From a virus, in IMG/VR virus record IMGVR_UViG_3300028608_000008, positions 32,001 to 96,000 of that record: a stretch of DNA of 64,000 bases. One strand, written 5' to 3'. The translations under genes were made by a program, and so were the position numbers. The notes beneath the pieces were generated by a model. That model made no database searches. It had not been told where the DNA came from and saw only the letters and a list, made by a program, of their open reading frames with translations. Shown piece after piece: positions 42,389 through 53,550 of this stretch (within the stretch, counting starts at the first letter, position 1; each line of letters opens with the position of its first letter).

Positions 42389-42505
42389 AAACCTCCCTTA
42401 GTCCGTAAGGGTAAGTCATTTCAAACCGAAGACGGCTATGGGATAATGTCAATACTGGGGAGAAGCCTAGCCCGGAACATTACACTTACGAGTTAGAGGA
42501 AGTTT
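42389..42505 (+). promoter_or_regulatory. Inverted-repeat-bracketed sigma70-like promoter cassette 1
   Basis: Arms 42389-42409 and 42485-42505; -35 TTTCAA 42419-24, 17-bp spacer, extended -10 TGg-GATAAT 42439-47. Confidence 0.75.
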
Positions 42506-42509
42506 GAGC

Positions 42510-42812
42510 ATGAGCAAGAAGCCGAGCGTTTACATTGACCACACCGCCGACGAATTGTTTGTAGATTGCGCCGACGATTTAACCTACCGCGTTTCGGACC
42601 TGATCGAATCGCTGGTTGAAGACGGGTTCTGTCCGAGAAGCGCAGCGCTAGTTGATGCCGCGTGGGAATGGTCGAAACTTTGGGAAAGCGCGCACGACAC
42701 AACCGGCACGCTGACCGCGCAATACCGAATCAACAGCGGGTTCTTCCACTGCGCGCAACCGTCACAGCGCACAATCGAACGCCGCGCAATCGCTGCATAC
42801 TTCGGCGGGTAA
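42510..42812 (+). CDS. Hypothetical protein (first gene after cassette 1)
   Basis: GAGG RBS lies inside the right arm; ATG 42510. Confidence 0.6.
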   Translation: MSKKPSVYIDHTADELFVDCADDLTYRVSDLIESLVEDGFCPRSAALVDAAWEWSKLWESAHDTTGTLTAQYRINSGFFHCAQPSQRTIERRAIAAYFGG

Positions 42813-42822
42813 ACATTCGCCA

Positions 42823-42838
42823 CGGGGCTTCGGCCCCG
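42823..42838 (+). other. cUUCGg hairpin without U-tract
   Basis: CGGGGC-TTCG-GCCCCG. Confidence 0.6.
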
Positions 42839-42887
42839 ACTCAAACTCGTAAACTGCAAACAATTCAGATTTTTCGGAACTCATATC

Positions 42888-43031
42888 ATGTACGCCACTC
42901 AAGTAAAAACCAAGAAAGTCGCTGCAACAAAATCGTGGGAATGGGACGCTGTGTTTGTGCAGGCTGATTCTGCGCACCAGAAAAAAGTGCAGGATGCCCA
43001 GCGCCGTTTCCGCAACGCAATCACCCGCTAA
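42888..43031 (+). CDS. Small hypothetical protein (47 aa)
   Basis: Read by hand: MYATQVKTKKVAATKSWEWDAVFV...; its stop lies in the junction repeat. Confidence 0.5.
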   Translation: MYATQVKTKKVAATKSWEWDAVFVQADSAHQKKVQDAQRRFRNAITR

Positions 43032-43295
43032 CTGTTTGGAAAACTGACCATGCCTGACCAAAAACCGACCTGCCCATTCAGCACGCACATTTACCACTGC
43101 GATGATCCACGTTACGACGGAATGTGCGTTAACGGTGAATTGCTGGAAGAAGAATTCCCCGGCCAAGGTGTTTACGTGTGGTACAACGAAAACGGTGATG
43201 CTTTGGGTCGCGCTCGTATCGACGGCGCCAAAGCGTTTAAGGGCCAGTACGTCACCCCGATTGTTCGCGACTAACTGTTTGGAAAACTGACCATG
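43028..43295 (+). repeat. Identical 25-nt stop/RBS/start junction repeat x2
   Basis: CTAACTGTTTGGAAAACTGACCATG at 43028-43052 and 43271-43295. Confidence 0.9.
43050..43274 (+). CDS. Hypothetical protein
   Basis: 74 aa, bounded by the junction repeats. Confidence 0.6.
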   Translation: MPDQKPTCPFSTHIYHCDDPRYDGMCVNGELLEEEFPGQGVYVWYNENGDALGRARIDGAKAFKGQYVTPIVRD

Positions 43296-43541
43296 ATTAT
43301 TCTGACCATCCTCCTTTGGGCCGTTATTGTTTACCTGTTGCTGGGCTGCGCTGTTGTCAGCCTCGCTGTTTGGTTCTGGTACAAGACCGAGCGTGAAAGC
43401 GTCGAGTACCAATTCGACTGGTTGAAAAATGCCAGTTGGAAAATGCGTGGGGCCGCTGTTTTGTTGGCCGTGTGGTACGGCGTCATTTGCTGGTTGCCGA
43501 TTGCGGCAGGCTGGATGACTCGCCCAACTAAATTCCGCTAA
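43293..43541 (+). CDS. Small membrane protein
   Basis: Two hydrophobic segments. Confidence 0.6.
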   Translation: MIILTILLWAVIVYLLLGCAVVSLAVWFWYKTERESVEYQFDWLKNASWKMRGAAVLLAVWYGVICWLPIAAGWMTRPTKFR

Positions 43542-43575
43542 CTGCAAACATTTCGATTCGACAAGGAGCCACACA

Positions 43576-51594: not shown

Positions 51595-51597
51595 ATC

Positions 51598-52068
51598 ATG
51601 GCAAAACAAAAACCGATTCTCGGCTATTGGATTTACGCGTTGCAGCGCAAGCCAGTTTTCGTTATCGACGCAATGCAGTTGTCCGTGCTGGACTACCACT
51701 TCTCGAAAACCGAAGTGGTTGAAGCGCAAATGCTCGTAAACGTTTGCAAGGAAGAACGGCGCAGCCTGTCGTTTGAACCAAACGCGGTTTCGGTCGAAGT
51801 TGTTTTCGATCCTCGCCGCGCACCTTCCATTGCATTGATCCGCAGTCCGGAAGATCGCGAAAGCCGAAGCTGGATGAACTTCGATGCGAAAGCAGGCTAT
51901 GACAATTTCGTGGCCGAAGGTTCGACCGAACCGCTTGCAATTGCTTTCGACTATTGCTTTACCGAAGGGCAGGCGCGTTTGCATCTGACTCCAAACAGTC
52001 CAATATTTCCCGTGCGCAAAAATGCAGTAGGCGGTCGCCTCGGTAAGCACGAAGAAGAAAGCGAGTGA
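51598..52068 (+). CDS. Hypothetical protein
   Basis: 156 aa, GGAG RBS. Confidence 0.6.
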   Translation: MAKQKPILGYWIYALQRKPVFVIDAMQLSVLDYHFSKTEVVEAQMLVNVCKEERRSLSFEPNAVSVEVVFDPRRAPSIALIRSPEDRESRSWMNFDAKAGYDNFVAEGSTEPLAIAFDYCFTEGQARLHLTPNSPIFPVRKNAVGGRLGKHEEESE

Positions 52069-52090
52069 TTGATTCACTCTGGAGGTAAAC

Positions 52091-52534
52091 ATGAAACGGG
52101 GCCTGTACGGTTTTTGGTTCCACTACGCGGACGGTTCGACATTCATCATCGACGCCACGCAATTGCATCAATTGAAAATTCAACACAAGGACCGCGAACT
52201 CACAGCGGCAGAACTCACTAGCATGATGGCCGCAGCGACTGTTGAATACGACGCGGTTTATTTTGCTGACGTGGGCGTCACTGTTGAGCCAGCCGTCACC
52301 GTTCGCAGCGCCCCGCGATTCGTTGTCCTCAAACCGTTGGTTGGTGACGGTGAAAAGTTTGCGCGTGTGTTTGAACCAACCACCGGCCACCAGATTTGCT
52401 ACGCGCAAGACGGCACGCTGGTTTACGAAATCGTCGGGTTTGCAGACAACTCACTCGACCTCAACGAGTTTTTGTACCACGACGCAAACAAAGGTTTCCC
52501 GCGTTCGACATTGAAGAAAGCAGCAAGGATATAA
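52091..52534 (+). CDS. Hypothetical protein
   Basis: 147 aa, GGAGG RBS. Confidence 0.6.
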   Translation: MKRGLYGFWFHYADGSTFIIDATQLHQLKIQHKDRELTAAELTSMMAAATVEYDAVYFADVGVTVEPAVTVRSAPRFVVLKPLVGDGEKFARVFEPTTGHQICYAQDGTLVYEIVGFADNSLDLNEFLYHDANKGFPRSTLKKAARI

Positions 52535-52545
52535 GGAGATTCGCT

Positions 52546-52785
52546 GTGAACTGGATCATTTTGGTTTTGAGCATCATCGGCATTGCGTTCCATTGCCTGA
52601 TGAAGTGGCAGGTCGCCCGCATAAACAAACGGGACCGGGCTGTACATGAAAGCAACCCGGTTTTTGTGCAGGCTGGTTTCCAGTACGAAAACATTCGGTT
52701 GCCGTGGCCGTTCTACATTCTGCTGGCGCTGTCCGTCTACAAACTAATTGAATCCATCGCAATTCTCTCTGGAGCGTGTCACTGA
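52546..52785 (+). CDS. Small membrane protein
   Basis: AAGGAG RBS then GTG; MNWIILVLSIIGIAF..., two hydrophobic segments. Confidence 0.55.
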   Translation: MNWIILVLSIIGIAFHCLMKWQVARINKRDRAVHESNPVFVQAGFQYENIRLPWPFYILLALSVYKLIESIAILSGACH

Positions 52786-53000
52786 TGATTCATCCCGAAA
52801 AAGGTTTGCACTCAAACCACCCCGGCCACACAAATTCCGATTGTCCGCTGCGTCTGCAAATCAATGCCGCACCGTATGGCACCAGCCGCAACGGGTACGC
52901 CTGTTCTTGGACCGGTGGACACTGCGTTAAATCCGACGATTGTGGGTCGCTGGTATCCGCACATGAACAGGAGCAATACAATGCGCCAAACATTTACTGA
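52785..53000 (+). CDS. Small Cys/His-containing hypothetical protein
   Basis: TGATG coupling, GGAG RBS. Confidence 0.5.
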   Translation: MIHPEKGLHSNHPGHTNSDCPLRLQINAAPYGTSRNGYACSWTGGHCVKSDDCGSLVSAHEQEQYNAPNIY

Positions 53001-53424
53001 CCGACGCTTCACCGAAATTTCCCCGCAGCATTTCGCGTGGTGCATTCAGATTCAGTTGCACGGCATTCGCCCCGACGCAAACTATCCGGGCGTGAATTTT
53101 CTCGGGTCTGAAATCCCTCTCGAAATGTTTGCGTTTTCCGAGGCGGAAATGAAACGCGCCGTAATGCTGGCGACTCCGAAAGCGCTCGGCCTTGCCGTCT
53201 CCCAACTGACGCACCAAATCAGCGGCGACAAACACGACGGCGTTGTCGAAGTCGTGCTGTTGTTCCGAGACGCCCTAACAGAAATGTTTGCAGAGGATGG
53301 CCGGGACTGGCAGACGGAATCCCTCGGGACGTTTGCCCAGCGCGTGCTAAACAAGGCCGACGCAATCCACAGCGTGCGCCAGTGCTTCGCGGACGCCACC
53401 AGCCGCACGTCCTACGGTTCCTGA
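52981..53424 (+). CDS. Hypothetical protein
   Basis: AGGAG RBS favours ATG 52981. Confidence 0.6.
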   Translation: MRQTFTDRRFTEISPQHFAWCIQIQLHGIRPDANYPGVNFLGSEIPLEMFAFSEAEMKRAVMLATPKALGLAVSQLTHQISGDKHDGVVEVVLLFRDALTEMFAEDGRDWQTESLGTFAQRVLNKADAIHSVRQCFADATSRTSYGS

Positions 53425-53433
53425 TCGTTCCGG

Positions 53434-53550
53434 AAACGTCCATTAAGCCGTAAGCCTAAATCGTACCGTTCTGGCGATTTCGTGGTATATTGACACTGTG
53501 TTCGGCGCAGCGTGCCTGACACCCTGACACTTACGACTTAGTGGAAGTTA
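53434..53550 (+). promoter_or_regulatory. Inverted-repeat-bracketed promoter cassette 3
   Basis: Arms 53434-53454 and 53530-53550; extended -10 TGg-TATATT 53483-91; weak -35. Confidence 0.75.

Follow-up and report, generated by a model that had tools for sequence, protein, structure and literature searches.

We identified a family of inverted-repeat promoter cassettes in a virus contig of IMG/VR, IMGVR_UViG_3300028608_000008 (124,245 bp, CheckV completeness 44%; hereafter G000). The part analyzed here, referred to as the window, comprises bases 32001–96000 of this contig (64,000 nucleotides), and coordinates below are those of the window unless the contig is named. In each cassette, a promoter lies between two 21-bp sites of one consensus (hereafter arms), the first upstream and the second downstream of the predicted transcription start. 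The cassettes are best described as early transcription-control modules of a jumbo phage of the Lu11/PaBG type ('Lupandier' group), and they probably form a shared control switch for the early genes. What distinguishes G000 and a collinear relative is that each of these promoters has a strong site on its downstream side and, on its upstream side, a weak inverted one. An initial annotation of the window had described three cassettes; the finding is real, statistically solid and larger than first noted.

The six arms of the window are present where the initial annotation had placed them, with gaps of 75, 74 and 75 bp, and direct reading showed that 14 of their 21 positions are invariant, as claimed. 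An arm consensus built from these three cassettes, WAACNTCCNNTARNYCGTAAG, had six exact matches in the window plus one match with three mismatches (0.45 matches expected at up to three mismatches). In the whole contig there were exactly 10 exact matches, all of them cassette arms, and none with one or two mismatches. The four arm matches beyond the original six serve as an out-of-sample test, for which approximately 6e-5 matches were expected. They define cassette 4 (contig 101709–101825, gap 75) and cassette 5 (contig 119463–119575, gap 71), both outside the window. In all five cassettes of G000 the plus-strand arm is on the left side.

The scan for the arm consensus was extended to relatives of the phage, as the initial annotation had proposed for the whole genome and related phages, and in addition to the two extra cassettes of G000 it revealed nine in G001 (IMGVR_UViG_3300034161_000018), a complete relative of 274,896 bp. 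G001 is collinear with G000 in reverse orientation, and structural and replication genes share 75–84% nucleotide identity. The early region of G000 aligns to G001 only in patches at the nucleotide level; its gene blocks are syntenic with G001 at 30–80% amino-acid identity and are mostly absent from Lu11 and PaBG. Five of the nine G001 cassettes, all on the minus strand, are positional orthologs of the five in G000, with fully collinear order, so that the predicted conservation of the arms in relatives holds even in this otherwise poorly conserved early region. The other four lie on the plus strand at 160.9, 165.6, 168.4 and 184.8 kb. Three short contigs yielded four more cassettes; the contribution of the metagenome scan was limited to two. 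At least 17 double-armed cassettes are present in the clade, all 17 of which point into their genes.

The DNA polymerase of G000 is 63–64% identical to those of the Pseudomonas phages Lu11 and HRDY3 and 59% identical to that of PaBG, which places G000 in the 'Lupandier' group of jumbo myoviruses. Members of this group have been described as carrying sigma-factor genes and relying on sigma factors together with the host polymerase (PMC7412058). Among sequencing runs, the G000 sequence occurred only in soil metagenomes, none of them an RNA run, and megablast of the region against GenBank phages gave no match. We also scanned 185,579 bacterial genomes for the arm and found a single match, presumably due to chance. 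The idea of a host-factor site was rejected on account of this near-absence, and the factor that reads the arm is more likely encoded by the phage than a host regulator. Pattern scans for the arm need context filtering, as a 20-nt arm pattern in nine IMG/VR loci (L064, L067, L071, L072, L076, L084, L088, L089 and L091) proved to be a coding coincidence. These loci encode a conserved peptide (…AHELQEV/AHELAEV…) of an apparent tail-fibre chaperone-type domain in unrelated phages.

The features of the three cassettes in the window are as follows (HTH, helix-turn-helix; ORF, open reading frame).
42329–42366, plus strand: intrinsic terminator with an 11-bp stem and a T-run, the top-scoring plus-strand terminator of the region; it ends the preceding gene block.
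42389–42409, plus strand: upstream arm (weaker site) of cassette 1, about −65 to −45 from the predicted start; consensus match.
42419–42447, plus strand: promoter of cassette 1, −35-like TTTCAA, 17-bp spacer, TGg and GATAAT.
42455–42475, plus strand: hairpin of cassette 1 at the predicted 5' end of the transcript; fold z −1.5.
42485–42505, plus strand: downstream arm (strong site) of cassette 1, about +31 to +51; consensus match.
45924–46844, plus strand: gene for a 306-aa protein with a weak C-terminal XRE-type HTH, confined to the G000/G001 clade.
46842–46862, plus strand: upstream arm of cassette 2; the stop codon of the HTH gene makes up its first three bases.
46872–46900, plus strand: promoter of cassette 2, TTTCCA, 17-bp spacer, TGc and TATCAT.
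46907–46928, plus strand: hairpin of cassette 2 at the 5' end of the transcript, with a 7-bp G+C stem; fold z −4.2.
46937–46957, plus strand: downstream arm of cassette 2; the first ORF is 51 nt on, at 47009.
53434–53454, plus strand: upstream arm of cassette 3; consensus match.
53483–53491, plus strand: extended −10 of cassette 3, TGg and TATATT, without a good −35.
53498–53522, plus strand: hairpin of cassette 3 at the 5' end of the transcript; fold z −1.8, near-identical in G001.
53530–53550, plus strand: downstream arm of cassette 3; the first ORF starts at 53569.

Cassette geometry was measured in 11 cassettes, and the 165.6- and 168.4-kb cassettes of G001 were read by eye. The distance from the end of the upstream arm to the −10 hexamer was 31–32 nt, and a TGn directly preceded the −10 in all 11. 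The extended −10 reported for the window thus recurs in all five cassettes of G000, and the TTTCMA element at a 17-bp spacer is present in two of them as described. The two G001 cassettes read by eye have TTGACC or TTGACG at a 17-bp spacer instead. Over G000 and G001 together, 14 of 14 cassettes have their promoter between two such arms, with either a TGn −10 or a good −35 at a constant offset. The downstream arm starts 34–38 nt past the −10, at approximately +31, in agreement with the earlier estimate of +32. The site centers are therefore near −55 and +41, and the dyad of the whole arrangement falls on the −10 region. Two other readings of the arm itself were rejected. A resemblance to T7-class promoters (TTACGACT...) would imply a start that removes the ribosome site, in a group that relies on host polymerase and sigma factors (PMC7412058), and an extracytoplasmic-function (ECF) type promoter does not fit because the AAC-to-CGT spacing is 11 nt rather than 16–17.

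Between the predicted start and the downstream arm is a hairpin whose sequence differs by cassette. The initial annotation had noted it, most clearly in cassettes 2 and 3. Its fold energy in 24 cassettes, including those of Lu11, had a mean z of −1.39, compared to −0.03 in control windows. RNAalifold found no consensus structure in 24 anchored leaders, because the hairpins are out of register; single-sequence folds do show them. A search of Rfam at a permissive threshold gave nothing relevant, and no transfer RNA genes were found near the cassettes. The sequences between the arms had been called otherwise unrelated. Diverged they are, but as homologs with a common promoter and hairpin, some of which also share the loop sequence. 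Since the interiors have diverged within a genome while the arms have not, selection appears to act on the arms themselves.

Each cassette heads a block of plus-strand genes, as the initial annotation had stated. The blocks span from 4.4 to about 18 kb and consist mostly of genes without known families; recognizable products include TraR/DksA zinc-finger, KTSC-domain, ACP-like domain, NUDIX hydrolase and glutathionylspermidine-synthase-like proteins. No further strong sigma70-type promoter was found on the plus strand in the 20 kb scanned. Strong intrinsic terminators lie upstream of cassettes 1 and 5, and the one in front of cassette 1 is kept in the orthologous G001 cassette. Cassettes 2–4 directly adjoin the stop codon of the upstream gene, with no terminator in between. 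A GAGGA inside the downstream arm of cassette 1 is the ribosome site for the ATG at 42510. The first genes after cassettes 1 (42510–42812), 2 (47009–48025) and 5 (contig 119591–119947) have no counterpart in G001, where either the ortholog of the next gene or an unrelated gene directly follows the corresponding cassette. In block 3, a strong intrinsic terminator (54864–54887) is located two genes into the block, before the TraR/DksA-like gene (54895–55137), and expression of the genes past it would depend on read-through, on antitermination or on a further promoter.

The two arms are not equivalent. Information content is approximately 2 bits at 16 of the 21 positions in the downstream arm versus 8 of 21 in the upstream arm, whose deviations cluster at positions 5, 7, 9–10 and 13–15. 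A base three positions inward of the arm is also kept on both sides, suggesting a site nearer 24 bp. The single arm is not a palindromic operator: each is asymmetric, and the two-fold symmetry lies between the arms. A dialect of the downstream arm, CTYACGNNTTANNGGAAGTT, occurs in about eleven copies in Lu11 and about nine in HRDY3, approximately 36–38 nt past the −10 of a TTGACA-type promoter and behind a GGGC/GCCC hairpin; at two homologous Lu11 modules, the authors of that genome annotated sigma70 early promoters. As in stoperator-type sites, its orientation relative to transcription is constant, in G000, G001, Lu11 and HRDY3; it lies at approximately +31 in all four. In the Lu11-type phages the downstream arm generally stands alone, which is a further indication that the two arms differ. 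The start codon is usually 2–5 nt past the arm in Lu11 and HRDY3, making the 3' half of the arm the ribosome site; some copies have a leader of 17 to about 190 nt. With a constant distance to the −10 and a variable one (2 to about 190 nt) to the start codon, the arm is tied to the promoter and not to the ribosome site.

An inverted upstream partner was found in only one Lu11-type cassette (Lu11 134.3 kb, HRDY3 129 kb and the contig G003). By synteny of the flanking genes, this cassette corresponds to that at 184.8 kb in G001, between a UvsX-like gene and a GyrA/gp52-like gene. A search of PaBG for the arm gave no match, and an inverted-repeat search of the same genome revealed two modules with a diverged box and a short inverted partner; in PaBG, too, the diverged arm follows the −10 of early promoters by about 36 nt. 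At PaBG 20557–20730, a 25-nt box upstream of an early gene has partial inverted partners of 11 nt (20668) and 10 nt (20712), which looks like an upstream arm split by an insertion. Taken from these comparisons, the downstream arm is the old element, and the upstream arm is a weaker inverted copy that is general only in the G000/G001 clade. The likely history starts with an ancestral promoter–hairpin–leader module, from which a single double-armed copy arose. In the G000/G001 clade, the upstream arm would then have spread to all early promoters, and the consensus −35 would have been replaced by an extended −10. In addition, a G+C-rich palindrome, TATACGCGTGCGCACGCGTATA, or tandem half-copies of it were observed in Lu11 (1–60), HRDY3 and the IMG/VR loci L048, L056, L065, L069 and L082. 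It sits approximately 60–100 bp upstream of several Lu11/HRDY3-type early promoters and may be the counterpart, in these phages, of an upstream control site.

We tentatively favor the view that the arms are a strong primary and a weak auxiliary operator for a phage factor that clamps or loops the early promoters. Host sigma70 RNA polymerase would start at the promoter, usually of the extended −10 type, and the transcript would open with the small hairpin, the downstream arm preceding the first gene of the block. The 21–24 bp arm would be an asymmetric binding site for a single phage-encoded, sequence-specific factor. Bound at the downstream arm as primary operator, this factor would block or trap polymerase just past promoter escape, and the upstream arm would serve as an auxiliary operator in inverted orientation. 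Factor on both arms could interact across the promoter in an antiparallel micro-loop or clamp that spans about 95 bp and has its dyad at the −10, and once accumulated it would switch off all early promoters together.

Several lines of evidence point to operators. Mean identity between partner arms was 15.9 of 21, compared to 15.4 of 21 between non-partners of the same genome (permutation p 0.18; p 0.11 when G–U pairs were allowed). Wobble-compatible mismatches between partners were not favored, and no compensatory changes were seen in orthologous cassettes of G000 and G001. Partner arms are thus no better matched than non-partners, which suggests that each arm is held to a common word and that its reader acts in trans. 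Because the inverted upstream copy is outside the cassette's own transcript, the same protein could read it only as double-stranded DNA. Together with the near-absence of the arm from bacteria and its constant distance to the promoter, these observations favor operators, and a strong downstream with a weak upstream arm is what a primary operator with an auxiliary one would look like. The initial annotation had likewise put paired operators, read by a looping or wrapping regulator, as its first choice. Arms exclusive to promoters, a kept consensus, strong and weak sites and a dyad on the −10 all agree with that choice; the regulator itself, the action of the arms as DNA, repression as the effect and looping are what we infer.

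Other observations weigh against this view. The center-to-center distances (85–87, 92–97 and 128–130 bp) are within approximately 0.4 turn of an integer at 10.5 bp per turn and hence compatible with helical phasing, but with only three length classes they are too few as proof. A loop of 95 bp is tight and would need bending help, and the distance of about 7 nt between conserved blocks inside the arm does not match that predicted for a single face of B-DNA. Among the early-region proteins there was no convincing DNA-binding candidate common to all arm-carrying phages: a phyletic search for the reader returned too many unknown proteins and no DNA-binding domain. No evidence ties the 306-aa HTH protein, a candidate binder in the initial annotation, to the arms, and Lu11_0021 ('putative transcriptional regulator') was rejected as the reader since it has no homolog in G000 or G001. 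Moreover, in phages of the Lu11 and PaBG types the Shine-Dalgarno sequence coincides with the 3' half of the downstream arm, so the element was at least ancestrally part of an mRNA leader. Finally, the arms pair in the minimum-energy fold of the read-through RNA in 11 of 14 cassettes, and cassettes 2–4 have no terminator in front of them.

The operator layout resembles known systems in part. The gal operators OE and OI, separated by 113 bp, surround the extended −10 promoter P1; the antiparallel loop they form depends on correct angular orientation and is less effective when polymerase also holds a −35 (PMC3488240). As in gal, and also in lac O1/O3, two regulator sites flank the promoter, one upstream near −60 and one transcribed; in the cassettes the centers are 92–97 bp apart, the promoters between them are mostly of the extended −10 type, and the sites differ in strength, one being strong and the other weak. 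However, the gal and lac operators are palindromes bound by dimers that tetramerize, whereas the arms are asymmetric inverted copies and it is the whole cassette, not each site, that has two-fold symmetry. The cassette layout is also not limited to one operon but recurs at all early promoters of a lytic phage, and binding and looping are proposed for it. A second parallel is the L5-type repressor, a monomer with two DNA-binding domains that recognizes asymmetric, transcription-oriented sites and acts both at promoters and on elongating polymerase (PMC9283540). Similar to L5 stoperators, an asymmetric site is present in many copies per genome, with the downstream arm in one orientation in the transcribed region. 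In contrast, the L5 sites are 13 bp long, number more than 20, are scattered between genes and serve lysogenic immunity, whereas the cassette sites are 21–24 bp long, confined to early promoters and arranged as inverted pairs in a phage without sign of lysogeny.

A more specific form of the operator view, in which one factor controls the whole early regulon of a lytic jumbo-phage lineage and cages each promoter between the strong downstream and the weak inverted upstream site in a micro-loop or clamp of about 95 bp, is possible but doubtful. Part of it is a stepwise addition of the second site, from one double-armed cassette in Lu11 types to all promoters in G000 types. If true, the caging arrangement would represent a new architecture for early shut-off and a natural series for the acquisition of an auxiliary operator.

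We consider it unlikely, although less so than the remaining alternatives, that the cassette is an RNA switch. Here the downstream arm would be a 5'-leader element read as RNA, such as a translational operator or enhancer, and the upstream arm its complement. Transcripts from the cassette's own promoter would carry a free leader, and read-through transcripts would carry both arms and form a helix of about 21 bp. This helix would act either as a mask or as a processing site of the RNase III type, and so silence or separate the downstream block. The arm does lie in the 5' untranslated region (UTR) behind the 5' hairpin, and for phages of the Lu11 and PaBG types it contains the Shine-Dalgarno sequence. 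The lack of a terminator between the upstream gene and cassettes 2, 3 and 4 means that read-through RNA with both arms should exist, and pairing of the arms in the 11 of 14 folds gains 12–31 kcal/mol. A helix of 21 bp corresponds to approximately two A-form turns, the size needed by RNase III. In the 184.8-kb cassette of G001 and in G002, a terminator hairpin directly follows the upstream arm, resembling the seed and terminator of a small RNA derived from a 3' UTR.

However, partner complementarity gave no sign of covariation (the p values of 0.18, and 0.11 with G–U, cited above) and no G–U-compatible excess, and several arm pairs in G001 are down to 13–15 of 21 matches. The sequence itself is kept, in the upstream arm too, and not merely its pairing. 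What stays constant is the distance from arm to promoter, not that from arm to start codon; the arm is kept in the G000 clade although 4 of 5 genes use a separate ribosome site 13–51 nt further on, and it matched no Rfam family. T7-type RNase III sites are similar in that, within a polycistronic early RNA, pairing of the arms could place a duplex of about 21 bp between gene blocks; they differ in that the cassette promoter would be inside the loop, in that sequence is kept rather than pairing, and in that the downstream arm has no partner in relatives. A separate gene for an anti-leader small RNA was also considered and none was found: the sole off-cassette near-match in G001 (248.4 kb, 2 mismatches) has no terminator and is ordinary sequence.

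It is improbable that the cassettes have no dedicated reader and are copies of one ancestral promoter–leader unit, kept alike by recombination or gene conversion, which would act as portable promoters and homology patches for the gain and loss of early genes, the arms being merely their best-kept parts. The model for such a module is the PeSL of T4-type phages, a promoter with a G/C-rich stem-loop before orphan genes in plastic early regions (PMC2839356, PMC4122927). The cassettes show this make-up (PMC2839356): they are repeats of about 100 bp that combine a strong sigma70-type early promoter with a stem-loop, placed before orphan genes in a plastic, fast-evolving region. Several Lu11 copies are nearly identical over approximately 95 nt, and for 3 of 5 cassettes, G000 and G001 have different genes right behind the cassette. 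Against this, PeSLs are not flanked by conserved inverted sites, the stem-loop in them is a terminator situated around or before the promoter, and a genome carries about 50 of them, compared to 5–10 cassettes per genome with the hairpin at the 5' end of the transcript. A gene-shuffling role of the cassettes has no statistical support. Turnover beside cassettes, 3 of 4 scored, was not clearly above the regional background of 24 of 87 other ORFs without a G001 counterpart (Fisher p 0.08), and the signal weakened with the fifth cassette counted (p range approximately 0.08–0.15). The order of the cassettes is collinear between G000 and G001, and the inverted orientation and fixed placement of the upstream arm are left unexplained.

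Slightly more improbable still is antitermination, in which the downstream arm, as nascent RNA or non-template DNA, would load a processive antitermination or elongation factor in the manner of nut, put or ops sites. Polymerases would thereby read through the internal terminators of blocks of 16–18 kb, and the upstream arm would be secondary or otherwise employed. Consistent with this possibility, a promoter-proximal arm is fixed behind a hairpin in every early unit, including those of phages that lack the upstream arm, and the blocks are long, with the strong terminator at 54864–54887 inside block 3. On the other hand, the inverted upstream copy is outside the transcript and unaccounted for, the hairpins have neither a common loop sequence nor a common aligned structure, and no NusG/RfaH-, N- or Q-like gene was recognized among the early-region proteins scanned, in a search that was not exhaustive.

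Recombination is the weakest of these alternatives. An inverted 21-bp repeat around a promoter is the formal layout of invertons and of miniature inverted-repeat transposable elements (MITEs) with outward promoters, and the arms might flip the 75-bp promoter segment or be the terminal inverted repeats of a Correia-like MITE. This is very improbable. No serine recombinase (Resolvase family) is encoded; all 17 double-armed cassettes face their genes; Lu11-type phages carry the downstream arm alone; and the variable central positions differ between partner arms. For synapsis, a segment of 75 bp would be very short. Target-site duplication is absent: GG always flanks the upstream arm, and its complement does not flank the downstream arm. 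Although G000 and G001 have diverged by approximately 25% at the nucleotide level, both have a cassette at each of the five sites, and cassette interiors have diverged, unlike the conserved interior of a MITE. The invertible promoters or cassette shuffling offered as a second choice by the initial annotation are disfavored, given a single orientation, unmatched core positions, no serine recombinase and a turnover not clearly above background; nothing supported its third choice, signals for DNA entry or replication. Contigs from four soil-metagenome runs span cassettes 1 and 2 in the same orientation as the reference, and none has a strand-switch joint there; rare variants are invisible in contigs, which therefore say little on inversion. 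No integrase-class match above threshold was found; in G001, a 574-aa open frame showed weak, sub-threshold similarity to a tyrosine recombinase catalytic domain (Phage_integrase) at 208722–209015 (19 bits, E 1e-4).

To our knowledge, jumbo phages of the Lu11/PaBG type have no RNA polymerase of their own, and the question at stake is how early and later transcription are timed in them. The cassettes define a complete set of early promoters, 5 to about 10 per genome, and point to a single sequence-specific reader able to switch the set as a unit. Lu11 and PaBG are grown in culture on Pseudomonas, which makes the downstream site directly testable, and the inverted duplication around each promoter in the uncultured clade is a natural experiment on the contribution of a second operator. 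Once its reader is known, the compact 117-bp unit could also find use as a promoter part that is portable and switchable.

A different signal was observed outside the cassettes. An octamer, ACTGTAAA, is present in 12 copies on the plus strand of G000 and in none on the minus strand, in most cases with AA before it and often just upstream of genes (for example, at 34127, 36437 and 48019). It matches a 16-bp 'putative middle/late promoter' annotated in Lu11 and is probably the word by which the phage marks its own middle/late promoters. The 165.6-kb cassette of G001 has copies of the octamer immediately on both sides. Also outside the window, contig 117015–118406 encodes the glutathionylspermidine-synthase-like ATP-grasp protein of the early region (Pfam E 3e-44); a tblastn search against PaBG gave no match, and the protein is 61–66% identical to its counterparts in G001 and Lu11.

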